From Macrostomum lignano (taxonomy: Eukaryota): a stretch of DNA of 64,000 bases. The stretch is taken from assembly GCA_002269645.1 (NCBI GenBank), contig NIVC01001967.1, positions 1-64,000 on the forward strand, read 5' to 3'. Made by a program: the position numbers and the translations under genes. Of the stretch, positions 4,462 to 62,851 are shown in pieces. The notes beneath the pieces were generated by a model, which was not told where the DNA came from, did no database searches, and saw nothing but the letters and a program-made list of their open reading frames with translations. Every line of letters begins with the position of its first letter. Within the stretch, counting starts at the first letter, position 1.

Positions 4462-4708
4462 GAGGTTGTGGCCTAGCGGTTAGAGCGTCGGACTCACGAC
4501 TGAAAGGTTGGGGGTTCGAATCTCGACCCACTCGGAGCAATTTGTTCTTGAGAAAGACACTTGACTCTGCATTGCATTGTGTGTGTGTCGACCGGGGGGG
4601 GGGGTCCCAGTCCTTGGACTGAACAGCCATACGCAGCCTTCAGATGCGCCGCGCAATAGCTGGGACTGCTGAGCTGTCGGTTGCACATCTCCCCGTCAGG
4701 GCAGGTGC
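4462..4708 (+). mobile_element. tRNA-derived SINE family A, copy 2
   Basis: A box (tggcctagcggttag) and B box (ggttcgaatct), followed by ttgttcttgagaaagacacttgactctgcattg and the tail shared with 1278-1533. Confidence 0.75.
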
Positions 4709-5824
4709 TTTCAAAATGTTCAAAACATCTACTATTACTAGAAATTTCTAGTCAGTTAGTGTTTAAATATGCGAGTACTACTACAAATATACCTGCTTTC
4801 ATATTTTGACCCAGCTATTTTCACTTAGTGGCTCAGATCAGTCAATTCAAAAAGGAATCCTTTGCTTTCTATAATTCTTTTTAAAGCCAAACTTTTATCT
4901 TGTGAATATACAAGAAGAATTATTGAATGAATAAGTTTACTTTTATGAATTATTTTGCTTATAATATTTAATTTTAGGCTTATTATTACAAATGATTTTT
5001 ATCTACTAATTATCACACAAGTTATTCTATGTATGAAGTATTTCCTGTATTTTGACCCTGTTAATTAATAGTACAAGACCTTAAGTAAGGTATGGTATTA
5101 ATCGTTATAATAAGTAGATAAACACAGCTTGTGAGAGAAGATTTTGCTTCTCTTATGCCATTGGTGCAAGGAAAATGGTCGACAAAAATTGAATAGTCTC
5201 ATTTGCTATTTTTGTTTCAACTGAAATTCGCTGAACAATTTTTTTCCTCACAGATTTCTCAAGTCGCTAATCTCTCTAATGCTGATTGTTGCCGAGTCAA
5301 AAATTATTGTTGGTAAATTTAATAATTAAATATTTTTCAATTATTCTCTTGTGCCTTATAAAATGGTTCATTTCTTCTATTTAAGCTTAATTCAAGGCTA
5401 AAATTGTTTTTCAGTGTTCTCTTCAATTTATTTTCTGTACTCTAATATAATATCCATAAGGAATGCCAGACACTTCTAGTTTTGAGTGGCATTGACATTG
5501 TACAGTATGGTATGCAAAACTGCTTTTAAAAGCTTAGCAAATGTTCTTTTCCATGAATATTCAGTGGAACACTCACAAAACACAAAATAACAAACAAAAT
5601 CTCCAGTATATCAATATCAGTACATATGCCCCATAAACTATAAATATTTAACATAATAAGCAAAGAACTTAATTCTCTGCAACTCTCCCTCTGCAAAGCT
5701 TCCACTTGCTCTGGCACCAAACTATCTTGACACCAAACTGTCTGGCTTCCTCCGTAAGAAAAGTATATTTTTGTATATTATCTTGCTCATGCTTTAAATC
5801 TACTCTCGTAACGAGGCTTACTGG

Positions 5825-7039
5825 TGTTATGCCGTGGCTTTCGCCTGAGATAGAACAAGGATTTCCCTGGGTGGTCGGGTAGGTCTTGTTATCCCACCGC
5901 TGCCACCAGTGTAATGGCTGTGCCTACTGCTTCCTCTGTCTGTCCTCGCTATCTAGCACGGCCGGTAGCTGGCCTGAGTGGTCTAGCACTATGGTCCGAA
6001 ATAACCCCTCTTAGTCTCCACTGAGTACAGTTAGATAATAACCGAGTATTGGTAGTTGGGTTGCTGCCACCTTGTAGGTCTACAGGTGATATCCTCGACA
6101 GGTTACCCCTAGGTAGGCCTACTGATAAGTAGAAAATAAATAAGACAAACAAGTCAGTTAAACGTTTATTAATGTGAGTAACGGTCACAGGCCGATCCTA
6201 AAATATCGTTTAATAGCTCAACTGGTGTCGCAGTAACAAGTCCCAACCCTATTAGGTGTCACTGATGTTGCCCAACAGCGTAGGTTGTAGGCCACGAGAC
6301 CAGGTCCAGACGGTGTCGAAGGTCTGGCGAGCTGATGACACAAAGACCTGCGGCAATCTTAATGAGCAAATGGCAGCTGCAACAAGGATTTGTTAGCAGG
6401 TTATCCCTAGGAAAAGCGTCTAGCGATCTGCCTAAGCTAGTTCGTCTAGGAAAAGCATCTAGGAATACTAGCCTTTGCTCGAAGCCAAGCAGGCGGTCTC
6501 CGAGAGGATGGTCTCTTTGGGCCTTCACCTACTCTGTATTTATACTAAATTCGGGGGTCTCAGGGCCAATGGGAAGCTCAGAGGCAGTTCCGTGGCAGAT
6601 CCCATGGCAGTTCCGTGACTACCCGGAGCCAGGAGCGATCTTGGAGATGTCCATAAGACATCTGCCTCATCATGCAGCCTCCGCATGGCCTGCTGGTACA
6701 CTGCTTGCATGTTGCGGCATGCAAGGAGTGCACCAAGACCCCACGAGAGCCTACCCCGGGCGGAGAGCTATGCTCTCACTCCCGCTGACTAAAAGCCTGT
6801 ACTAAAGGAGAAATATCCCACTGACTAATGTTTCTATTTTTAGCCCATTGCAGACTGCGCCAGGGGGAGAGGGGGAGAGATTTCTCTCCCTGTCCCGCGA
6901 CAGCTGCACACCTGAGCCTGCACAAGGAAGAAGGGGAAAGGACAGCCCTATGCCCAGCTCCCACTGCTGCAGCCCAAGCACTAACTGACTAAAGGGGGAT
7001 CCCAGGAGCAGCCTATGCTAGCTACGCTGGATCACCACA
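5825..7039 (-). repeat. 3' LTR (core 5910-7039 plus PBS 5891-5908 plus 66-bp spacer 5825-5890)
   Basis: Matches 13685-14901 except for one substitution and two 1-bp indels seen by eye. AATAAA on the element strand at 6165-6170. Confidence 0.95.
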
Positions 7040-7051
7040 CCCACCCCACCT
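7040..7051 (-). promoter_or_regulatory. Polypurine tract (AGGTGGGGTGGG)
   Basis: Immediately precedes the TGTGGTG start of the 3' LTR on the element strand. Confidence 0.75.
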
Positions 7052-7517
7052 GAAAAAGAAGAAGCGACACCAGGAGGTTCTTCATCAAGTAAGGTAAGTC
7101 AATGTATTTAATAAGTCATGTAGGTATCAATTAGAGAAAGGCCATAGGCCAATACACAGAAGCTGATAGTTATACTGAAAGGCCTGAGCCAATACGCCTG
7201 TGAGGCCATATGCCCCACAATGAGCTACTGTAGACGAGCGTCTCCATTAATGGGCCGGCCTCGCCGTATTCAGCAGAGCGAGGGCCTCGGCTGATAGGGC
7301 CGGCATGCGGCCGAGATCTTGAGCTGCTCTGCGTACTGCGGCCTCCAACGCCACGGCGTAATGCCGATATGGCATGAGCAAAGAGCGCGTTCTCGTGAAG
7401 GCTTCGTTGATGAGGGCGCGCCGCTCATCCTCGCCATAGCCTTTAGTGCAATGGTTTGCGGTGTGGACCAGGCCGTTACTTCTCCGGTATACGCGGCTTT
7501 CAGCAGAATGGCCGCGA

Positions 7518-10500
7518 TCATCTGCTTGATAGGCTCCCTGGCCGGCTGCGACTGGCTGCTACAGGCCGTCCCGCCACTGCTGGCCGGTGCCACCTTGCTA
7601 GGAGGGGAGCGGCTTCGCCCTCCCAGCCTTTCCAAGGCCGTCGGCCGTCCAGCGGGCTGCCAGTTGGCCGCGCGCTGCCGGGAGCGACTCCTCGATGGTC
7701 CTGCCGCTGCCCGGCCTCTGGCCGGGGCTTCTCCAACAGGGCCGTCTTCCTAGGGGTTGGCTCTGTTTGAGGCCCGGCCACAGCCTGGACGTTCGTGTCG
7801 ACTCGCAATAATGTACGGCGGGTAATGCCGATGGGCGCTGTAACCGGCGGGCCAGACGGTATTGGCGTTGGCTGGGTCTTCACCCGCCCTTCATCGGGAC
7901 GCGGTGATGATGACTCGATCGGCTCGAAAGAGTCGTTCGAAGCTGACAGAGAGAGCTGCTGCTCTAGAGGCATCTCGTCCTCGCTCATGATGGTGCTGGA
8001 ATGCGGAAAGAAGCGCCTTATTGAAGAGGCGAGCGCATCCCTGATCCTAGCAACATAAGATTTAGCTCTAGGATTCATTATTAGTCTATCTGGGGCTCGG
8101 CGGTCTCTCCGCGGGCGCTCAGCAACAGGCTGAGGGTCCGGGGGCACCGCTTCGGGCTGTTCTATGTCCCTAGGTGTTTCAGGTTGCTCATGAACAGCTA
8201 CCCCATTTTTATTCATTTCAGGTTCGGCGACTTCTGGGATCGCTGCTAGTGCTGCGGCCGGACGCAGAAAGTAGCGCGGAGCCCAGTCGTTATTATCGTC
8301 ATCGAGCTCGTCAACGTCATCGGCGACTTCGCCGGTATTCTGAGAGGCAGTGGTTTCTATGGCAACGCGAGGCTTACGCGGCGGCCCAGCACGGTGCTCA
8401 GCTGCCCGGCCAGCTGGCTCTGGATAGTCAGCTTGCGGAACCGGTAGCATATTGCGACGGTGCACCACCAACTCCTCTCGACGAGCCCTAGGATTCCGGA
8501 GGCGAGGTCTGATCTTGTAGACAACTTCTCCTTTGCGCTCTACTACTTCATACACAGCCTTGCGCGGTCTGTGAAATTTCTGCGCTTCCCAAGACTGATC
8601 TAAGACTGGATTGTTCAAGAAGACTAGGTCACCCGGTGAGAGCTGCTTGGCCTTCGGGCGATTCTCATAATGTTCATCGCGAAGTTCTTGATGCAGCTTC
8701 ACACGGTCCTGGGCTAACTTATTAGCTTCCTCTAGTCTCTTCTGGAAGTCTTGGACGTACGTTGGCAAGTCCGGATATTCAGGTGGGACCCGAAGCTCAT
8801 TATCAATGGGCATCCGGAATTCTCTTCCAAAGACCAAGAAGTAGGGCGTAAACCCTGTAACCGGGTGAACGCTAGATCGCAGAGCGATCATGCATGCTGG
8901 GAGGAAGGTATCCCAATCTTGGTGATTCTTCTCCAGCAAGCACGTGAGTACACTCTTGATTGTCTTGTTGAGATTTTCCACCTGGCCATTCGAACTAGGA
9001 TTATACGGCGTTGTAGTCGTGTGCCTAATGCCGTACAGCTCACAAAACTTCTTAAAGTCCTTTCCAGTGAAATTCGTTCCTTGGTCGGTGTGCAGCCACG
9101 CTGGTACACCGTACTCCGGAAACAATCTTTCCTGAAGAATCTTGACTACGGTCTTGGTCTTCTGGTTCCGCATAGGGAACGCAAAAGGGTATTTTGAAGT
9201 AGCATCGCATAGCGTCAGAATATAGCGGTGGCCAGCTCGCGAAGGCTGCGAGATTGGGCCGACAACGTCGCAGTGTAGCCGCCCCATCACTTCACAGACT
9301 GGGAAGCTCTGCACAGGCACGGCTTCGCGACGGCGAGTCTTGCTCTCCAGGCAAACTCGACATCGGGCCACGTAGGCCTTAACCGCTTTGCTCAAAGACG
9401 GCCTCCAAAACCTTTGTCTAACCCGAAGATAGGTCTTAGTTTCGCCAAGGTGTCCACTCAAGGGAGCATCATGGAGCTCTTTGAACACCTGGTCATCTAG
9501 ACTCTTCGGCAGCACAATGCGCGGTGGACGGTCTGCTATGTCTTCATCGTAGACGAGCAGGTTGTCTACTAGCCGCAACATCTCAAAGTAGCCTAGTAGG
9601 TTGCGCGTATCCCTACTAAGACGTAGTCGGGCGTCAAAGGACGGCTTGGGCGAACTAGTCGCTAAAAGATTTCTGACGAACTCAATGTCCGGGTCCTTCT
9701 GCTGCTCGAGGAGCAGTTGGTCTCGCTTCAGAGGTTCGGACAGAAAATCACTAAGCAGAACACGACAGCGTGGAGGAACATCCTCACTAACGCTACGGTT
9801 CGCTGATTCCGTTATTGAAGCAGATAATGGCCTTGCTGCGTCGTCGGTCCGGATTCCTGCGGTCAGGTCACCTGAGACACGAGGGCGAACAGCTTCTATG
9901 GCCGTAGGTGCGGTAGTGTGGCGTCCAACTGGGGCAAAGTCCACAGCTAAACCAGCAACCTTGGCTGCCCATTCTGAGCGGCGGTCCACTGAGGGACAAC
10001 ATGTCGCATCAGTCTGGCAGACAGCCTCGGACGCTCCAGCCGAACAACGGTTCACTGAGGAACAACATGTTGAGTCGGCAGAAACGGCCGCAATAACGGG
10101 TGTCGGACATCGGTCCACTGAGGGACAACATGATGAGCCGGCGACGGCAATACGAGATCCTGCGAGGCAGAACTGCTGGATGTTACTTGGTCGGCGTCTT
10201 CGACTAATCCGAGGGCTGAGGGTACAGTGGCCTCATTTTCTGTCTGGTTGGGTGTCCGTGCTCCAGGACGACAGTCATCGAACTCCGGACCGTCCGGCTT
10301 TCTTGATAAGCTGTCTGCGTTCTGGTGCAAACTTCCCTTCCGATGAATGACAGCAAAGTCGAATTCACTTAGCCGTTCGACCCAACGACCCAAGATCCCT
10401 TCGGCTTCAGTCTGGCGAATGAGCCAAAGAAGAGCCCTGTGGTCTGTTCTAACCTCAAATCTCTTGCCGATTAAGTAGTAACGAAAGTGCCTCATCGAGT

Positions 10501-12616
10501 CAACAACGGCCAAAAGCTCACGCTTGGTGTTGTTGTACCTCGTTTCAGGCTCGCGCAATTTCCGACTAAAATAGGCAACAGGCCGCTCCGCACCATCGGA
10601 TTGGCGCTGGCCTAAACAGGCGCCGATTCGGAAACCTGAGGCATCACAATCCAGGACGAAGACTGTGTCTGGGTCTGTGTTGTACTCTGGGTACGCGAGG
10701 ACCTCAGTAGAGCACAGCTTCTTCTTGAGCTCATCGAAAGCTTTCGAGTGTTGCTCTGTCCATAGCCCCTTGAACCCAACAAGGTTCTTCCGAGTCAATT
10801 GATGCAACGGGGCAGCAATTTCGGCGTAATTCTTAACGAATTTGGCATAGTAGTTACAGAGACCTAGAAAGCTCTGCAGCTGCTTGACTGTCTGAGGACG
10901 CGGCCAGTCTAGTATCTGCTGTACCTTGTCTTCATTAGTCCTAATGCCTCGTCTATCGACTACATGTCCGAGATAGTGCAACTCTGTCTTAAACAGATGG
11001 CATTTGCGTGGCTTTAGCTTAAGATTGGCTTCAATGAGCCGCCTGAACATTTCGCGAAGATGTTCGAGGTGCTCCTCGAAGGCAATACTATGAATGACAA
11101 TGTCATCCATGTATCCTAAGCGAACTTAGTGATACCGTCTAGCAGCATATTGATGCATCGCTGGAAGGCTCCAGGGCTATCGCGAAGCCCCATAGGCAAG
11201 ACGTTGAACTCAAACTGACCTCGATTGATCACTGAGAAGGCTGTGCGAAAACGATCCTCTTCACGCAACGGGATCTGATAAAATCCTTGAGCAAGATCCA
11301 AGCTGCTGAACCATTGAGATCCACGGAGACATGCAAACGTCTCCTGGATAGATGGCAACGGATACGGGCGATATTCGCATCTCTCATTCAGCTCGCGATA
11401 GTCATGGACTATGCGGACAGATTTGTCCTTCTTAGGCACTACTAAGATAGGAGAGCTGTAGCTTGAATAAGATGGCCTGATCAAGCCCTTCTCTAGCATC
11501 TCATCTAGCAGCTGATTGACCTGATCTTGTAGGTGCGGGGGAACCCTGCGAGCTGGGATCCTAACTGGAGTCTCGTCCCGCATGACGATCTGATGGGTCA
11601 CCAGGTGAGTCAGACCGTGATCAAGAGTGTGCGTGGAGAACGCATTACGCGACTCTCTGATCAGCTCTCGAACCTGGGACTTCTGGTCCTCCGTGATCGA
11701 ATCGCCTATCTCTATCTCATTGATCCAATCGTCACTGGCTGAATTGATGTTATCGTCTAGGTGCAACTTGCGCACAGGTGTTGCTTTCAGTTCTGGATAG
11801 TACTCGAGGTCTTGCGTCGGAGCGGTGTGGCAAGGCCCACCAAGGCTCCTTTGGCTATATTAACTGGAAAGTTGTTAGGATTAACAACTTCCATGCAGCC
11901 TTTGCCTTCATGCATCGTTACCAATGCTGCAGATGCGCGGACCTGGGAAAGCCCAGCGCGGAGTCCAGATCTGAGTGGTTCAACCACTGCTGGCACTCCA
12001 TAATTCGATTCTTTGCCACGTGCCAGTTGCACAGATATGAGGCCAGAACTTCGAGCAGGAATCTGATGTTTTCCGGCAACATAGACTCTGCACGAGGTTG
12101 GCTCACGGCGCGTATAGCGCACGGGTACACAAGTACCAGTAGTGAGGGTAAGCATTCCTGTCTGGAACTCCAAGGTCCGACAGTGCTTCCTCATAAAATC
12201 AATGCCTAGGAGATTCTCCTGATCGCCGCTTACAATGTAGAATTCAGCTTCAGCTGAGAAATCTCCGAAGACAACATCAAGCATAACCTTACCGGTTAGC
12301 TGTAATTCAGAACCATCATAGGTTAGAATACGATCAGAATAAGTAGGCGTAACTACGCATGCATGTGCAGTACTGCGCGATAACAATCGCCAAGTAGAAA
12401 GGCCCATCAGGTTCAGTCTGCTCCCGCTGTCGAGAAGCAAGGGAACCTGTTGGCCGAAAATAAGCGCAGTTACATAAGGATCAGCACCAGAGTTATATAC
12501 ATTATTTACAAAGAAGAGTCTACGGTATCGCCAGACTCTCCAGACTGCTTTAGTGCGACTTCGGGGGTTGGCCCTGGAGAGGGTCCTGGTTGGCAACCCC
12601 CGCCCGGACGTTTCCC
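7518..12616 (-). CDS. Gypsy pol: protease, RT, RNase H, integrase (split over 4 ORFs by frameshifts)
   Basis: PR LLLDSGS; RT LDLAQGFYQI, LPMGL, (Y)MDD; RNase H LDCDASG, TKRELLAVV, TDHRAL, NADSLSR; INT H-H-C-C zinc finger, LHCDVVGP, HTDQGTNF, NGQVENLN and a GPY/F-like segment. Confidence 0.95.
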
Positions 12617-13515
12617 GGCTTCTGAGCCTTGAACTTAGGACAGTCAGGCCTCTTGTGGCCTGGTTTACCGCACTCGTGGCACACAATGCCTTGCAGCCTA
12701 TCTCTGACAGGTGCGGCTGGCGTCTGCTTGAGAAGCTGCTCAAGCATCTGCTGCTGCTTCTGCAGAACCTCATTCTGATGCCTGATTAGATTCTTAAGCT
12801 CATCGTCCTGTCGGGGAACCGTAACTTTGTCCCCACCAAGGCTGCGACAGGGTGCGTCTTTGCTGCGGGCAGCAAGCTCACGTGCTGTCTCGATGCGCTT
12901 GAAGGCGAACTTGGCGTCCTGTAGAGTCTCTGGACGACCCCAGTACAGCCGTTCTCTCGCCTCAATTGTAGTTCTGACACCTTTCAGGAACTGATCAACA
13001 AGTTCTGATTCGAGCTGAGCTGGCAAGAGATAAGGATAAGCGAGTTCTCCGAGTTCGCGGAGAGCATCTGCAAACTCGTCAATGTCCTCGTTCTTGCGCT
13101 GAGTTCGGCAGCGGAAATCTTCTCGGAATTCCTGTGAGCCGCCTCTCTTTGAGAATCTCTCAATCAGCGCTTCCTTAAACTCTTCGTACTCCAGATGGTC
13201 TGGCAAGTTCAGGCGCAGGACCGAAGCATACGCCGTGTGCACGTCAAGGTTGGCGAGCAACTCCGCCTTCCTGTGGCAGGCACGAATGTCTTCGGTATCG
13301 CAGCGAAGATCGAAGGCTTTGATCCACGTGCGGATGTCTTGGGATGGCGTGTATTTAGCCATCTTGACATGCTGCCTGACTTGGCCTATACCAAGCTGGC
13401 GCTCCAGTGCATCAGCGAGACGATCAAGACGTTCGCCTAGTACCGGTTCCTCAGCTCCTGCTCCAGCACCATCGTCAGGTGGTGCCATTGAAGCACGACT
13501 GCTGGCAATAGACAT
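12550..13515 (-). CDS. Gypsy gag with CCHC zinc knuckle
   Basis: 321-aa ORF containing CHECGKPGHKRPDC, located downstream of the PBS. Confidence 0.93.
   Translation of the reverse strand: MSIASSRASMAPPDDGAGAGAEEPVLGERLDRLADALERQLGIGQVRQHVKMAKYTPSQDIRTWIKAFDLRCDTEDIRACHRKAELLANLDVHTAYASVLRLNLPDHLEYEEFKEALIERFSKRGGSQEFREDFRCRTQRKNEDIDEFADALRELGELAYPYLLPAQLESELVDQFLKGVRTTIEARERLYWGRPETLQDAKFAFKRIETARELAARSKDAPCRSLGGDKVTVPRQDDELKNLIRHQNEVLQKQQQMLEQLLKQTPAAPVRDRLQGIVCHECGKPGHKRPDCPKFKAQKPGNVRAGVANQDPLQGQPPKSH
12562..12616 (-). promoter_or_regulatory. Putative -1 ribosomal frameshift signal
   Basis: In-frame G GGA AAC heptamer (12616-12610), 7-nt spacer, then a 9-bp stem cgggggttg/caacccccg (12602-12594 with 12570-12562). 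Confidence 0.7.
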
Positions 13516-13580
13516 TGCTATGATTACTAAGTGAGACTAAGACGTAGGTGGACGAAGGATTGACGTGGTCGTTTTACCGG

Positions 13581-13769
13581 ATCCCACCGCTGCCACCAGT
13601 GTTATGCCGTGGCTTTCGCCTGAGATAGAACAAGGATTTCCCTGGGTGGTCGGGTAGGTCTTGTTATCCCACCGCTGCCACCAGTGTTATGCCGTGGCTT
13701 TCGCCTGAGATAGAACAAGGATTTCCCTGGGTGGTCGGGTAGGTCTTGTTATCCCACCGCTGCCACCAG
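13581..13769 (-). repeat. Tandem array of 3 tRNA-Leu primer-binding sites with two identical 66-bp spacers (85-bp period)
   Basis: PBS TGGTGGCAGCGGTGGGAT at 13581-13598, 13666-13683 and 13751-13768. It is complementary to the eukaryotic tRNA-Leu 3' end AUCCCACCGCUGCCA plus CCA. Confidence 0.93.
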
Positions 13770-14901
13770 TGTAATGGCTGTGCCTACTGCTTCCTCTGTC
13801 TGTCCTCGCTATCTAGCACGGCCGGTAGCTGGCCTGAGTGGTCTAGCACTATGGTCCGAAATAACCCCTCTTAGTCTCCACTGAGTACAGTTAGATAATA
13901 ACCGAGTATTGGTAGTTGGGTTGCTGCCACCTTGTAGGTCTACAGGTGATATCCTCGACAGGTTACCCCTAGGTAGGCCTACTGATAAGTAGAAAATAAA
14001 TAAGACAAACAAGTCAGTTAAACGTTTATTAATGTGAGTAACGGTCACAGGCCGATCCTAAAATATCGTTTAATAGCTCAACTGGTGTCGCAGTAACAAG
14101 TCCCAACCCTATTAGGTGTCACTGATGTTGCCCAACAGCGTAGGTTGTAGGCCACGAGACCAGGTCCAGACGGTGTCGAAGGTCTGGCGAGCTGATGACA
14201 CAAAGACCTGCGGCAATCTTAATGAGCAAATGGCAGCTGCAACAAGGATTTGTTAGCAGGTTATCCCTAGGAAAAGCGTCTAGCGATCTGCCTAAGCTAG
14301 TTCGTCTAGGAAAAGCATCTAGGAATACTAGCCTTTGCTCGAAGCCAAGCAGGCGGTCTCCGAGAGGATGGTCTCTTTGGGCCTTCACCTACTCCGTATT
14401 TATACTAAATTTCGGGGGTCTCAGGGCCAATGGGAAGCTCAGAGGCAGTTCCGTGGCAGATCCCATGGCAGTTCCGTGAACTACCCGGAGCCAGGAGCGA
14501 TCTTGGAGATGTCCATAAGACATCTGCCTCATCATGCAGCCTCCGCATGGCCTGCTGGTACACTGCTTGCATGTTGCGGCATGCAAGGAGTGCACCAAGA
14601 CCCCACGAGAGCCTACCCCGGGCGGAGAGCTATGCTCTCACTCCCGCTGACTAAAAGCCTGTACTAAAGGAGAAATATCCCACTGACTAATGTTTCTATT
14701 TTTAGCCCATTGCAGACTGCGCCAGGGGGAGAGGGGGAGAGATTTCTCTCCCTGTCCCGCGACAGCTGCACACCTGAGCCTGCACAAGGAAGAAGGGGAA
14801 AGGACAGCCCTATGCCCAGCTCCCACTGCTGCAGCCCAAGCACTAACTGACTAAAGGGGGATCCCAGGAGCAGCCTATGCTAGCTACGCTGGATCACCAC
14901 A
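13685..14901 (-). repeat. 5' LTR
   Basis: Direct repeat of 5825-7039. Confidence 0.95.
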
Positions 14902-15420
14902 CTGGGGTAACTGCTGAGATGTCGAGGCTTACTGGGGGAACTGCTAAGATGTCGAGGCTTACTGGGGGAACTGCTGAGATGTCGAGGCTTACTGGGGGAA
15001 CTGCTGAGATGTCGAGGCTTACTGGGGGAACTGCTGAGATGTCGAGGCTTACTGGGGGAACTGCTGAGATGTCGAGGCTTACTGGGGGAACTGCTGAGAT
15101 GTCGAGGCTTACTGGGGGAACTGCTGAGATGTCGAGGCTTACTGGGGGAACTGCTAAGATGTCGAGGCTTACTGGGGGAACTGCTGAGATGTCGAGGCTT
15201 ACTGGGGGAATTGCGTAGATATCAAGGCTTACTGGAGGCGTGGGGGGATTGCTGAGATGTTACGGCTTCCTGGGGGGGGGTAGTTGCTGAGATATCAAGG
15301 CTTACTTGGAGGAACTGCTGAGATGTCGAGGCTTACTGGAGGAATTGCCTAGATATCAAGGCTTACGGGTGCGATTGTTGAGATATCAAGGCATACGGGG
15401 GAATTGCTTAGGTGTTAAAG
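14902..15420. repeat. 30-bp minisatellite (gaggcttactgggggaactgctgagatgtc)
   Basis: Tandem units that degenerate to the right. The first unit (acgaggcttactgg) lies left of the retrotransposon at 5811-5824. Confidence 0.95.
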
Positions 15421-16475: not shown

Positions 16476-19400
16476 TCATTTAAGCACCAAGCGGTTCACT
16501 GAGCCGTCCATATTGCCAACGTAGATTTTCGATGCCAGCTGAATGAACAGGCCGGTCTCGATCACGCCTGGATTGATTTAACGGGCAGACATAATCAGTA
16601 AACTAATTATTTGTTGTCGCAGGAGTTTTTTTATTAGAGGCAGGGGGGTTGTGTGCACCCTGGCGCACTTTAAGCATCATAGGCACACAACCGGCGAGAG
16701 GCATTAATGCCCATTCCGCCGACTCCCCTGAACAGGCATACAAGCGCGCGGATACGTACGCAGGCACACACTCACACAGGAGTGTACAGCGGCCCTAACT
16801 TTATATTATCGTTAGGCATGTACACTTCACTGCGCCTTTGGGGGGTTGGCTCTCAAGGCCGTTAATTGCACGAGCAGAGCCAAGCCGAGATTCCAATTCA
16901 GCCCCAAATTAATGTGACTGCACTTGGAATCGAGCCTGGGTCGCTGGCACACCAGAGCAGCTGCGCTACCGCTGGGCTACGCCCCCCCCCCCTGTAATTG
17001 TAGGTGTAGTTCCATTTTAAATGTTTACGAGCGTACTAGCAGCAAATTCTAGACTTGTCTAGATAATAAAACGAAGGCAATGTTACCAATATCATTCTTT
17101 ATATTGTTGTTGATCTAGTCTAGGTCAGTTATATACGAGATATTTAAGCTTTGTACATGAACAAAGCTGTTTAACGTAGATCCTAATCGGGGTTTATTGC
17201 TGTCTTTAATAAACTAATGAAGCCATATATGCGCAACAGTCGGCCAAGTCGGCCGATCCGGCCGACTGATTTGGCAGCCAACCAAGGAAGTCGCAAAAAT
17301 GCCAACCCTAATAAATACCCAAGTAGTAGTACTAAGTAGCTGACGAGGCATTTCGGCCTTATAAGACAGTCATAGTTACTCCCGCCGTTTACCTAAAGTT
17401 GCGTTAATTTTGCTTTAGGGTTTTTTTACATGTAAGTCGCATTTTTGGCCAAAAACTACGTCGCATTTTTGTTAAAACTAAGTCGCACGGCCGACTGAAT
17501 TTTGGAAGTTGCACATGTATGAATGAAGCTAATATGATAGGAAATCACCTGGCATCTGATGCAGCTGGAAATCCACTTCTTCCCAATTGTGCTGCTGATC
17601 GAAGTGCCAGTCGAGTATAAAATTGCCGTTATCAGTGACAACGGGACCCTGAAAATATTAATGTTTTTTGGGAGTCGGCTTTTCGATTGGCGTTGGCAAC
17701 TAGTTTTACTAATAGCTAAAACTTAAAACGGAAAATTATGCGAACATTGATATGATGCAAAATTCTGACGACAGCCCCATAAAATGCTGATGACAGCCCC
17801 ATAGAATACTGATGACAGCTTCTATGTCACCAGCTCACCAGCTTTCCCAGAGACTCCCTCAGCAGGGCACTGCCACCGAACTGGCACTCGACCCGGCGTT
17901 TAACCAGCGACCAGGCCATAGGCACAACCTCGAGCGGGATGCCGCCCTTCCACTTGTGCCCAAACTGGACGCTATACTTGCTCTCGTCGCACACAATCAC
18001 CAAAGTGTGAGCGGCGGTGTCAACTATTTTCTCTTGCAACAGGCAGCCGCCGCCGCCTTTGATCAGGTTTAGCTCGGAGTCCACCTCGTCTGCGCTGTCC
18101 ACCGACCAGTCCAGCTCTTCGTCGCAGTGCTCCAGCTCGAATAGGCGGAGTCCACGCTCGAGAATTAGCTGCTTCGCCTTTGGCGCATGTGGGAGTTTCG
18201 GTTCAGTAGCGTGAACGAATGCGTAAGTTGTTTTATAAGAAAGCAAAAGCAGTTGAAGCTACATTAGCTACGAGCGCTAGCCAGCCGCCAATGAAGTTGT
18301 ACATGAAAGAGATTTTGTGGAGAGAAGGGAGAGAAGAGAAGGGAAAGGAGAGAAGGGAGGGGAGAGAAACGAAGGGAGAGAAGGAAGAGGAGAGAAGCGA
18401 GAGGAGAGAAGAGAAGGGAGAGAAGAGAGGAAAGATGAGAGAAGCGAGAGGAGAGAAGGAAGAGGAGAGAAGGGAGAGGAAAGAAGGGAAAGGAGCGAAG
18501 GGAGAGCAGAGAAACGAAGGGAGAGAAGGAAGAGGAGAGAAGCGAGAGGAGAGAAGGGAGAGAAGAGAGGAAAGAGGAGAGAAGCGAGAGGAGAGAAGGG
18601 AGAAGAGAGAAGCGAGAGGAGAGAAGGGAGAGAAGAGAGGAAAGAGGAGAGAAGCGAGAGGAGAGAAGGGAGAAGAGAGAAGGGAGAGGGGAGAAGGGAG
18701 AGGGGAGAGAAAGAAGAGAAGGAAGAGGAGAAAAAAGAGAGGAGAAAATGGAGGGGAGAGAAAGGAGGGGATAGAAGTTCGAGAAGAGAAGGGAGAGAAG
18801 AGAGGGGGAGGAGAGAGGGGGAGGAGAGAGGGGGAGGAGAGAAGGAGGAGGAGAGAAGTTCGAGAAGAGAGGGGAGGGAAGGGAGAGGAGAGAAGGAAGA
18901 GGAAAGAAGGGAGAAGAGAGAAGAGGGAGGGAAGAAGGGAGAGGGCCGAGAAGGGAGGGGAGAGAAAGTAGAGAAGGAAGAGGAGAAAAAAGAGAGGAGA
19001 AAATGGAGGAGAGAGAAAAGAGAGGAGAGAAGGGAGAGAAGAGAAGGGAGAGAAGAGAGGAAAGAGGAGATCGAAGGGAGGGGAGAGAAGGGAGAGGAGA
19101 GTTGAAAAGAGACAAACATTGAGCTGGTTGGATTGCTACTGTGACGTTTTAAAGGACCCGAGGGCCGGATTATAAAGGCTTGGCGGTCCGGAGTTTGACG
19201 ACCCCTGACGAATCGTGGTTGGTAATAAAGGCAGACGTACCTGATAAGAAGTAGGAATGCAGCGCACCGACCAGCCCCTCTGCCGGATTAGTTCGGCTGA
19301 AATTGACGTTTAGAAGACTTTATGCAAGTTTTAGCATTAAGAAACAGGCGAAGAGAGCGAGTCTGATGGTTTACTGGCTAGATGGGGTCCTGCACAGCTA

Positions 19401-26839: not shown

Positions 26840-29216
26840 ATGCCATTCTCTTCATTAAAGAAAGGTAGCAAAAGCGATCGACGACACTACAAAGAGCGCC
26901 AACAGCTGGGCAGACGGGCCCATCTTGGCCAGTTAGAGAAGCACAAAGACTACATAGTTCGGGCTAAAGACTATCAGAAAAAGTCGGCAACATTAAAGTC
27001 GTTGCGTCAGCGGGCCAGAGACAAAAATCCGGATGAGTTTTATTTTCACATGACTCGCTCTCAGCTGGTTGACGGTCAGCACTCTGAGACTGCGGCCCGT
27101 GTGGCAGCTGGTTAGCAAACTATTGCAATTTCTATTTTATGTTTGCTATTTATGGCGAATTTACAGGCAAGGAAAGTTAAAATCGTCTGGGGTGCCGTAG
27201 CCTACTGGTCCAGCGCGGCGCTCTCATCTGCCAGCGGCCCAGGCTCGATTCCACATTAATTTGGGGCTAAATTGGAATCTCGGCTTAGCTCTGCTCGTGT
27301 AATTAACACCCAGCTTGAGGGCCAACCTCCAAGGCGCAGTGAAGTGTACATGCCTAACAATAAATAAAGTTAGGGCCGCTGTGCACTCCTGTGTGAATGT
27401 GTGCCTGTGCATAAGACTTTGTACTGCGCACGTATCCGCGCCCTTGTGTGCCTGCTCAGGGGAGTCGGCGGAATGGGGGCAGTAATGCCTCTCACCGGTT
27501 ATGTAACAATGTCGCTTAAAGTACGCCAGGGTGCACACAGCCCCTGCCTATCTCTACTAAGGGTGGAGGTTTCGAACTTGGGAAATTTCGAGCTTATGAA
27601 GTTTCCAGCTTGTGAAGTTTCGAGCTTATGAAGTTTTAAGCGTATGAAGTTTCGAGCTTATGAAGTTTCGAGCTTATTAAGCTTCGAGCTTATTAAGTTT
27701 CGAGCTTATTAAGCTTCGAGCTTATTAAGTTTCGAGCTTATGAAGTTTCGAGCTTATTGAGCTTTGAGCTTATTAAGCTTCGAGCTTATTAAGTTTCGAG
27801 CTTATTAAGCTTCGAGCTTATTAAGTTTCGAGCTTATAAAGTTTCGAGCTTATTGAGCTTTGAGCTTATGAAGTTTCGAGCTTATTAATTTTCGAGCTTA
27901 TTAAGCTTCGAGCTTATTAAGTTTCGAGCTTATGAAGTTTCGAGCTTATTGAGCTTCGAGCTTATGAAGTTTCGAGCTTATTAAGTTTCGAGCTTATTAA
28001 GCTTCGAGCTTATGAAGTTTCGAGCTTATTAAGCTTCGAGCTTATTAAGTTTCGAGCTTATTAAGCTTCGAGCTTATTAAGTTTCGAGCTTATGAAGTTT
28101 CGAGCTTATTGAGCTTTGAGCTTATTAAGCTTCGAGCTTATTAAGTTTCGAGCTTATTAAGCTTCGAGCTTATTAAGTTTCGAGCTTATAAAGTTTCGAG
28201 CTTATTGAGCTTTGAGCTTATGAAGTTTCGAGCTTATTAATTTTCGAGCTTATTAAGCTTCGAGCTTATTAAGTTTCGAGCTTATGAAGTTTCGAGCTTA
28301 TTGAGCTTCGAGCTTATGAAGTTTCGAGCTTATTAAGTTTCGAGCTTATTAAGCTTCGAGCTTATGAAGTTTCGAGCTTATTAAGCTTCGAGCTTATGAA
28401 GTTTCGAGCTTATTAAGCTTCGAGCTTATTAAGTTTTGAGCTTGTTAAGTTTCGAGCTTATTAAGCTTCGAGCTTATGAAGTTTCGAGCTTATTAAGCTT
28501 CGAGCTTATGAAGTTTCGAGCTTATTAAGCTTCGAGCTTATGAAGTTTCGAGCTTATTAAGCTTCGAGCTTATTAAGTTTTGAGCATGAAGTTTTAAGCT
28601 TTTGATCTTTCGAGCTTGTGAAAGCGACTGTTAACAATGAGAATTCAATTGAACAAAAACTGAACAATTAGTCAATTATCCTTAGATAAAAGGCTAAGTT
28701 ATTAAATCTCTTCATGAATGCACTTTTACAGATCGGCAGCCGCCAACAGCGGACAACAAACGCATGCGCCAGATGCTACTAGAGGACTCCAATTATTTGC
28801 GTCACAAGTTGCAAATTGAACGAGCACAGCTGGCTAAATTAGAGGCCAGTCTAGCATTTGTCGGAACCGATAGCGGCAGTAAGAGCAGCCGGACAGTGTT
28901 TAGTAAAACCGATTTTAGACGTCTCAGTCGTTGTGAGTCGAGCAATGATAAAGAATTAGGTAATGATGGAGCCTGGTCTGCTCACCTGTCCAGCCTACCT
29001 GAGCAGGAAATCGCCCGCCTAGCCAAAGAGCGATCGCGCACGCTTAAAGCCGTTCGCCAGCGAGTAGCTCGAGTTGCCGCCCTGTCCTCCGCGCTGGCCG
29101 CGCTTGAAGCCAAACGAAATTTGGCCGCCGAAATTGGCCGGCCTCGCAAACTGATGGCCGAGGCGAGTGGCGACTCGCCGGCTGTGTGGAAATTCGCGTT
29201 CAAACGGAAACGATGA
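26840..29216 (+). CDS. UTP11: U3 snoRNP-associated protein 11, 2 exons
   Basis: Exons 26840-27110 and 28732-29216 (phase 1). Motifs [40 protein letters not shown] and the C-terminal [11 protein letters not shown]. Confidence 0.95.
27189..27555 (+). mobile_element. SINE family B, copy 2 (UTP11 intron)
   Basis: Aligns with the reverse complement of 16639-16990. Confidence 0.75.
27570..28628. repeat. 16-bp satellite (tttcgagcttattaag variants) ending in a TIR-like motif
   Basis: About 63 units. It terminates in cttgtgaaagcgac, the same motif as the right end of the 30084-30953 element. Confidence 0.93.
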
Positions 29217-62582: not shown

Positions 62583-62851
62583 ATGCTGACTCTCCTAGAC
62601 GCAGAAGGTTGCCAGCAGCTGTTGTGTCCCGACAGCCAGTCGCAGTCGTCCGTCGTCACGTCGTTTCAGTCGCGTCAGAACTGCTCCGGCTGTGGCGAAG
62701 AAATCCGCGAGCGCTACTTTCTGCAGACTGGTGACAGCGGCTTCTGGCACGCCGAGTGCCTGCGCTGCGCCGCCTGCCAGACACCGCTGGCTCACGAGGT
62801 CACGTGCTACTGCAAGCACGGACTGGTGTACTGCAAGCAGGACTATGCTCG
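62583..62851 (+). CDS. LIM-domain exon, probably the first exon of a LIM-homeobox gene (Lhx2/9-like); partial
   Basis: CSGCGEEIRERYFL....FWHAECLRCAACQTPLAHEVTCYCKHGLVYCKQDY followed by the donor G|GTGAGT. The gene continues beyond the window. Confidence 0.85.

Follow-up and report, generated by a model that had tools for sequence, protein, structure and literature searches.

A Ty3/gypsy element of Macrostomum lignano with tandem primer binding sites and an integrated end that points to priming at the second site

In retroviruses and Ty3, the base before the primer binding site (PBS) that was used determines where the cDNA ends on the right, and the RNA upstream of that PBS is the template for the U5 region of both long terminal repeats (LTRs); a single PBS normally fixes the U5 end of the LTR. 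The DNA analyzed here, a stretch of 64,000 nt from Macrostomum lignano (contig NIVC01001967.1, positions 1-64,000; hereafter the window), contains an LTR element in which the same complete PBS occurs three times in tandem on the 5′ side and once within the 3′ LTR. This arrangement raises the question of which PBS primed the copy, and which sequence served as its integrated end.

The integrated end and the repeated units

The element occupies positions 5825-14901 of the minus strand, to which all element features given below belong, and is the sole LTR element described in the window. Its left junction reads ...ttaCTGG followed by TGTTATG, with CTGG at 5821-5824 and the element starting at 5825, and its right junction reads ...CACCACA followed by CTGG, with the element ending at 14901 and CTGG at 14902-14905; these two unstranded copies form a target-site duplication. 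At the core LTR end, the neighboring letters (5906-5909) are CCAG, not CTGG. The insertion site is the first unit of a 30-bp host minisatellite, inside which the right copy of the duplication also lies, and among duplication lengths of 0-7 bp only 4 bp restores the minisatellite phase (41/43 matches vs. 30-34), so the CTGG duplication is real. Junction letters and minisatellite phase together agree with the sequence-only reading, which had set the duplication against the spacer end at 5825 and not against the core LTR end at 5910. CTGG lies directly on ...ACA, in a register that matches the ACA-C-TGG junctions in the 5′ array; this supports the spacer end as a real integration end and is consistent with the proposal that the spacer's ATAACA was the end used by integrase.

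In element sense, the 5′ side runs core-ACA, C, PBS1, spacer-ACA, C, PBS2, spacer-ACA, C, PBS3, leader, and gag, and the 3′ side runs core-ACA, C, PBS, spacer-ACA, and host DNA. The exact 18-nt PBS occurs four times in the window (5891-5908, 13581-13598, 13666-13683, and 13751-13768), at positions that bear out the earlier description of one internal PBS and one spacer in the 3′ LTR, and of three PBSs and two identical spacers on the 5′ side. The repeated unit is 85 nt long (a 66-nt spacer, the 18-nt PBS, and 1 nt) and is identical at 5825-5909, 13600-13684, and 13685-13769. When each LTR is drawn with one unit at its U5 end, the 3′ LTR as integrated (5825-7039; 1215 bp) and the 5′ LTR (13685-14901; 1217 bp) differ by one substitution and two single-base indels. 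The 3′ LTR adjoins a polypurine tract (7040-7052) and consists of a core (5910-7039; TGT...ATTACA), a 1-nt linker (5909), the internal PBS (5891-5908), and the terminal spacer (5825-5890) with the integrated end ...ATAACA. The 5′ LTR comprises its core (13770-14901), PBS1 (13751-13768), and a spacer (13685-13750); directly after the LTR end as set by the integrated end comes PBS2 (13666-13683), the putative primer site, followed by the second spacer (13600-13665), identical to the first, and by PBS3 (13581-13598), beyond which the leader is unique. Allowing at most one mismatch, a 12-nt core of the PBS has 5 matches in the window against 0.23 expected, a number reached by none of 100 shuffles; an isolated 11/12 match to this core lies on the plus strand at 62729-62740.

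The spacer end and the core end have ACA in common and are identical at 10/16 terminal bases (P = 0.0016; 0.024 given the ACA), and their local similarity is not significant (3605/5000 shuffles). HIV-1 likewise has a single base between its CA and the PBS. An AATAAA near 14030 places the unit in the predicted U5, and since the unit lies downstream of this motif, the PBS of the 3′ LTR would not be present in the genomic RNA. All 18 positions of the internal PBS are complementary to the 3′ end of tRNA-Leu(AAG); the 18-mer appears, with its CCA, as that tRNA end in an excerpted primer table (PMC9161985), it equals tRF-Leu-AAG, and the tRNA fragment also occurs in two further literature passages. 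On the best explanation of the boundaries and repeats, this copy functions with a 1.2-kb LTR that includes an internal PBS.

By the sequence features tested, this is a Ty3/gypsy element: it is bounded by a short target-site duplication and has two TG...CA LTRs, a tRNA PBS directly after the 5′ LTR (PBS2, 1 nt after 13685), and a polypurine tract before the 3′ LTR, and its Pfam domains follow the Ty3/gypsy order on the minus strand (RVT_1, RT_RNaseH, Integrase_H2C2, rve). The putative gag frame (12550-13536) has a CCHC knuckle and weak Pfam matches just under the cut-offs, with its first Met ∼68 nt after PBS3. It is followed by a frame at the expected protease position (11787-12785; no Pfam match), frames for the N-terminal part of the reverse transcriptase (RT; 11116-11859) and for the C-terminal part of RT with RNase H (10052-11125), and an integrase frame with Pfam zinc-binding and core domains (7518-10232). 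Four frames that overlap make up the pol region (7518-12785), whose interruptions may reflect errors of the assembly. In a comparison with solved structures, the RT of Ty3 was closest (E = 1.5e-45, vs. 1e-18 or weaker for spuma- and gammaretroviral RTs). The closest named protein is from Macrostomum lignano itself (68% identical over RT/RNase H), a gag search returned one relative (51%; without DNA context), and no relatives of the RT/RNase H were found in viral_contigs. Elsewhere, the window contains two pairs of inverted dispersed repeats (1278-1537 with 4464-4707, tRNA-like by eye, and 16645-16958 with 27220-27544), and minisatellites are numerous throughout.

Alleles and PBS-like repeats in other contigs

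Parts of the stretch are present in 20/24 listed sequencing runs, which come from 8 studies and carry one organism label. Assembled contigs of four runs from four studies (X1, X3, X5, and X6) were compared with the window over 5300-7150. In X1, a contig (record 2) spans the flank into the spacer (5587-5853) and bridges the junction at 5824. Flank contigs in X3 (record 10) and X6 (record 26) run 33 and 25 letters beyond 5824, respectively, in sequence unlike the element, and a contig in X5 (record 18) ends exactly at 5824. If contigs break at 31-mers (shared 30-mers), the filled allele would be predicted to stop at 5853 and the empty allele 33 letters past 5824; these stops match X1 (filled) and X3 (empty), and that in X6 falls 8 letters early. 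We infer an empty allele at the host site in X3 and X6. The insertion at 5824 appears polymorphic, with X1 filled, X3 and X6 empty, and X5 branching; the assembly could itself derive from X1. Given a filled junction in one run and flanks that continue without the spacer in two, the spacer is part of the element and not of the host DNA. An empty site already holding the spacer, which the sequence-only reading had named as fatal to it, was not found, as the continuations in X3 and X6 are not spacer.

The loose ends of these contigs (judged on the best 24 of 179 rows) bear on other copies. At 5824, those of X3 show the spacer joined to the PBS, and those of X1 and X6 (two contigs each, in mixed rows) resemble a PBS joined to a different flank, suggesting that further insertions also end on the spacer. 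Among these best 24 of 179 rows there was no flank joined to the core end and no copy ending after two spacers, and among the matches listed for the four runs there was no joint of two tandem spacers, which was seen in this assembly only; at this coverage, neither absence carries weight. Summed contig depth over spacer and PBS exceeded that of the neighboring core bin in 4/4 runs (ratios 1.6-4.0), although contig depth is no copy number. Relative to nearly all contigs, the LTR in the window shows several single-base differences, with bases missing from the window LTR. Variant forms were also seen in short rows by eye: three contigs of X6 have, 37 nt upstream of the core end, an extra 12-nt match to the PBS with an ACA end of its own, and X1 and X3 contain a third kind of ACA end before the PBS. 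A form that leaves the window sequence at 5921 was observed in X1, X3, and X5 (loose ends, 5914-5931).

Beyond these runs, two tandem-PBS patterns had no matches in viral_contigs, and a scan of metagenome_contigs returned 33 loci, 28 of which were set aside by eye as codon-type or simple repeats and five examined. Three of the five represent one gypsy family with integrase before RT, the Gmr1 order (L003:5890-5977, L004:6001-6088, and L009). Its members have a 12-nt copy of a tRNA-Leu PBS 70 nt upstream of a full 18-nt PBS, the upstream copy being preceded by ACT-C instead of ACA-N, and the 3′ LTR is absent from the DNA examined. A fourth locus (L029:143-480) comprises eleven units of 31-32 nt, each with ACA and one base ahead of a 12-nt motif resembling a tRNA-Leu PBS; it was rejected as support because a retroelement gene is absent from its 3.1-kb contig, and the fifth (L032) was rejected as a low-complexity reading frame. 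Taken with the variant end-plus-PBS junctions in the runs, these PBS-like repeats hint at a wider occurrence of such units; an end integrated at a downstream module was found neither among the variant junctions nor among the repeats of other contigs.

Primer choice and its alternatives

With one unit in both LTRs, the PBS used for priming would be the second when counted from the 5′ end of the RNA, unless RT skipped a repeat. We hold, with modest confidence, that the copy was probably primed at this second PBS and inserted at the ACA before it, a reading that rests on one full copy. An enumeration of routes from parents with 1-5 PBSs yielded 10 that lead to the observed provirus, and the only one without an extra event is a three-PBS parent primed at PBS2. 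Of the earlier claim of priming at the middle PBS (13666-13683), the second position from the 5′ end is retained, on the strength of the single unit in both LTRs, and the designation as the middle site is not unique given ten routes. Nine other routes yielding the same provirus weigh against priming at PBS2, as do the lack of a doubled spacer outside this assembly among the matches listed and a predicted accessibility that does not favor PBS2. One of the ten, in which a two-PBS parent is primed at its last PBS, finished on a second RNA, and transferred to PBS1, produces the same provirus with one unit added, and this route offers a possible way for the array to grow.

Under priming at PBS2, tRNA-Leu would anneal at that site, and minus strong-stop DNA would copy the spacer, PBS1, the core U5, and R, so that both LTRs would gain one unit. 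The ACA end of the spacer would then be processed by integrase as the core end would be. The 85-nt units likely expand and contract through out-of-register annealing of plus strong-stop DNA at the PBSs, or through switching of RT between packaged RNAs, and over time the U5 boundary would likely shift by whole end-plus-PBS units.

Predicted folding bears on whether PBS1 would be passed over. The opening energies of the three PBSs are 11.3, 11.0, and 10.8 kcal/mol at the shortest span, with PBS3 or PBS1 lowest at other spans; the same predicted hairpin encloses PBS1 and PBS2, which have a similar opening cost, and predicted folding revealed no structural preference for PBS2. Because folding gives no reason to skip PBS1, and PBS1 is likewise perfect, a real choice among PBSs stays plausible. 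At three places (13642-13683, 13727-13768, and 5867-5908), a hairpin is predicted between a PBS and the 24 nt that open the adjoining spacer, and the unit folds with a z of -2.25 (3/200 shuffles fold equally well).

One alternative, the strong form of the sequence-only reading, is that all three PBSs prime at comparable rates, with copies and solo LTRs that would end after 0, 1, or 2 spacers and so record the primer site. PBS1 still matches at 18/18 and its ACA-C-TGG junction is intact, PBS1 and PBS2 share an identical downstream context in addition to their similar predicted accessibility, and HIV vectors engineered with two PBSs reportedly initiate at both. We consider it unlikely, however, as joints between a flank and the core end were absent from the best 24 of 179 loose-end rows, both hinted further insertions (X1 and X6) end on the spacer, and the excess contig depth over spacer and PBS (1.6-4.0 in 4/4 runs; contig depth being no copy number) runs against it.

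Alternatively, in the case that the sequence-only reading itself had named as refuting it, the LTR of the family may always carry one unit, with PBS1 never used and the third PBS a tandem duplication in this copy, through replication slippage after insertion or through an assembly duplication. The identity of the two 5′ units fits such an event, as does the lack of a two-tandem-spacer joint among the matches listed, although short contigs over the tandem junction could easily fall outside those matches. The single-base indels of the LTR relative to nearly all contigs point to an imperfect assembly, and the Gmr1-order element (L003, L004, and L009) provides a case of a decayed 12-nt PBS copy 70 nt upstream of a full PBS. 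An unused PBS in U5 should drift, yet PBS1 is perfect while the flanking ends differ at 6/16 bases, and we regard this explanation as quite improbable.

Priming at the third or a later PBS, with RT skipping at least one identical unit during strong-stop synthesis and so leaving one unit in the LTRs, accounts for 6/10 enumerated routes, draws on the common deletion of direct repeats by RT, and has PBS3 as the most open site in 2/3 folding settings, but it requires between one and three additional events, or else a parental array of at least four PBSs, which was not seen, and is very improbable.

Separately from primer choice, several sources of the spacer were considered. A read-through copy of a whole tRNA, for which 85 nt would fit tRNA-Leu, is ruled out, as the unit is not tRNA-like: ARAGORN predicted 0 genes, Rfam gave 0 matches up to E = 10 in 13500-13900, and the fold in tRNA sense has a z of -0.04. 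The same three results rule out a tRNA or tRNA-derived insert at the PBS. Similarity to the start of the leader, as expected of an old duplicate, is not significant (338/5000 shuffles), and the best sense-strand match of the spacer elsewhere in the element is no better than shuffles (223/300).

Significance and comparison with known systems

A natural element that has a complete PBS in both LTRs and is integrated before the next PBS indicates that a perfect site can be passed over in priming, and the same insertion indicates that integrase accepts a second end, the spacer ACA. An LTR annotated as ending at the first PBS would be 85 bp off at its boundary, and the duplication would be overlooked. 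Should copies differ in their number of units, genome sequence alone would suffice to count primer choice in vivo, and LTRs would have a way to acquire leader sequence; should all copies have one unit, the structure is simply an odd U5.

More broadly, and tentatively, some tRNA-primed Ty3/gypsy families may carry an array of interchangeable end-plus-PBS modules, any of which is able to prime, with the U5 boundary reset at each transposition; we see this generalization as possible and rather doubtful. Were it true, downstream priming would capture modules into U5 while older ones decay, such that the LTR end walks along the leader, and insertions and solo LTRs would be a readable record of primer choice. 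Spare sites might also buffer silencing by 3′ tRNA fragments.

The Macrostomum element shares with Ty3/gypsy elements (Metaviridae) the order of a putative gag followed by RT, RNase H, and integrase, the TG...CA LTRs, the tRNA PBS, the polypurine tract, and the 4-bp duplication, and it differs in that three complete PBSs each follow an ACA end of their own and both LTRs contain a complete PBS. A natural element with tandem end-plus-PBS units was not found in the literature covered, which lay mostly outside subscription papers, repeat databases, and supplements, and an earlier description may exist. In the sections available, the “two” or “alternative” PBSs of PMC3212995 and PMC6995185 are different tRNA types among copies. 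A Leu PBS and a 4-bp duplication are shared with Mdg3-lineage elements of Culex, according to extracts of PMC3286476, and the likeness to Mdg3/Micropia consists of these two features.

More than one tRNA-binding site per genomic RNA is described for Drosophila Gypsy, with two tRNA-Lys2 sites, and for Ty3, with a bipartite PBS; in the portion of the source at hand, the second site, located at the 3′ end, binds a different region of the tRNA and is unable to prime (PMC1635307). In the Macrostomum element, in contrast, all sites match the 3′ 18 nt of the tRNA, they are in tandem, and each could define an LTR end; a bipartite PBS of this kind is ruled out, as all four sites are the same 3′-end 18-mer. 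HIV-1 isolates of the MAL type also have a natural duplication at the PBS, but it is 23 nt long, partial, located downstream of the PBS, and without end sequence, and a shift of the LTR boundary is not described in the passages available (PMC3185550). In cqgypsy_1 of Culex, a piece of the LTR end (26 nt) is likewise duplicated around the PBS region, which the extracts of PMC3286476 attribute to an inserted pair of tRNA-like sequences. The Macrostomum unit differs in being without an Rfam match and in being repeated exactly. In retroviral (HIV) vectors engineered with two PBSs, Voronin and Pathak in 2004 are said to have found initiation at both sites. Those constructs are artificial, whereas the Macrostomum element is natural and has its integrated end at the downstream site.
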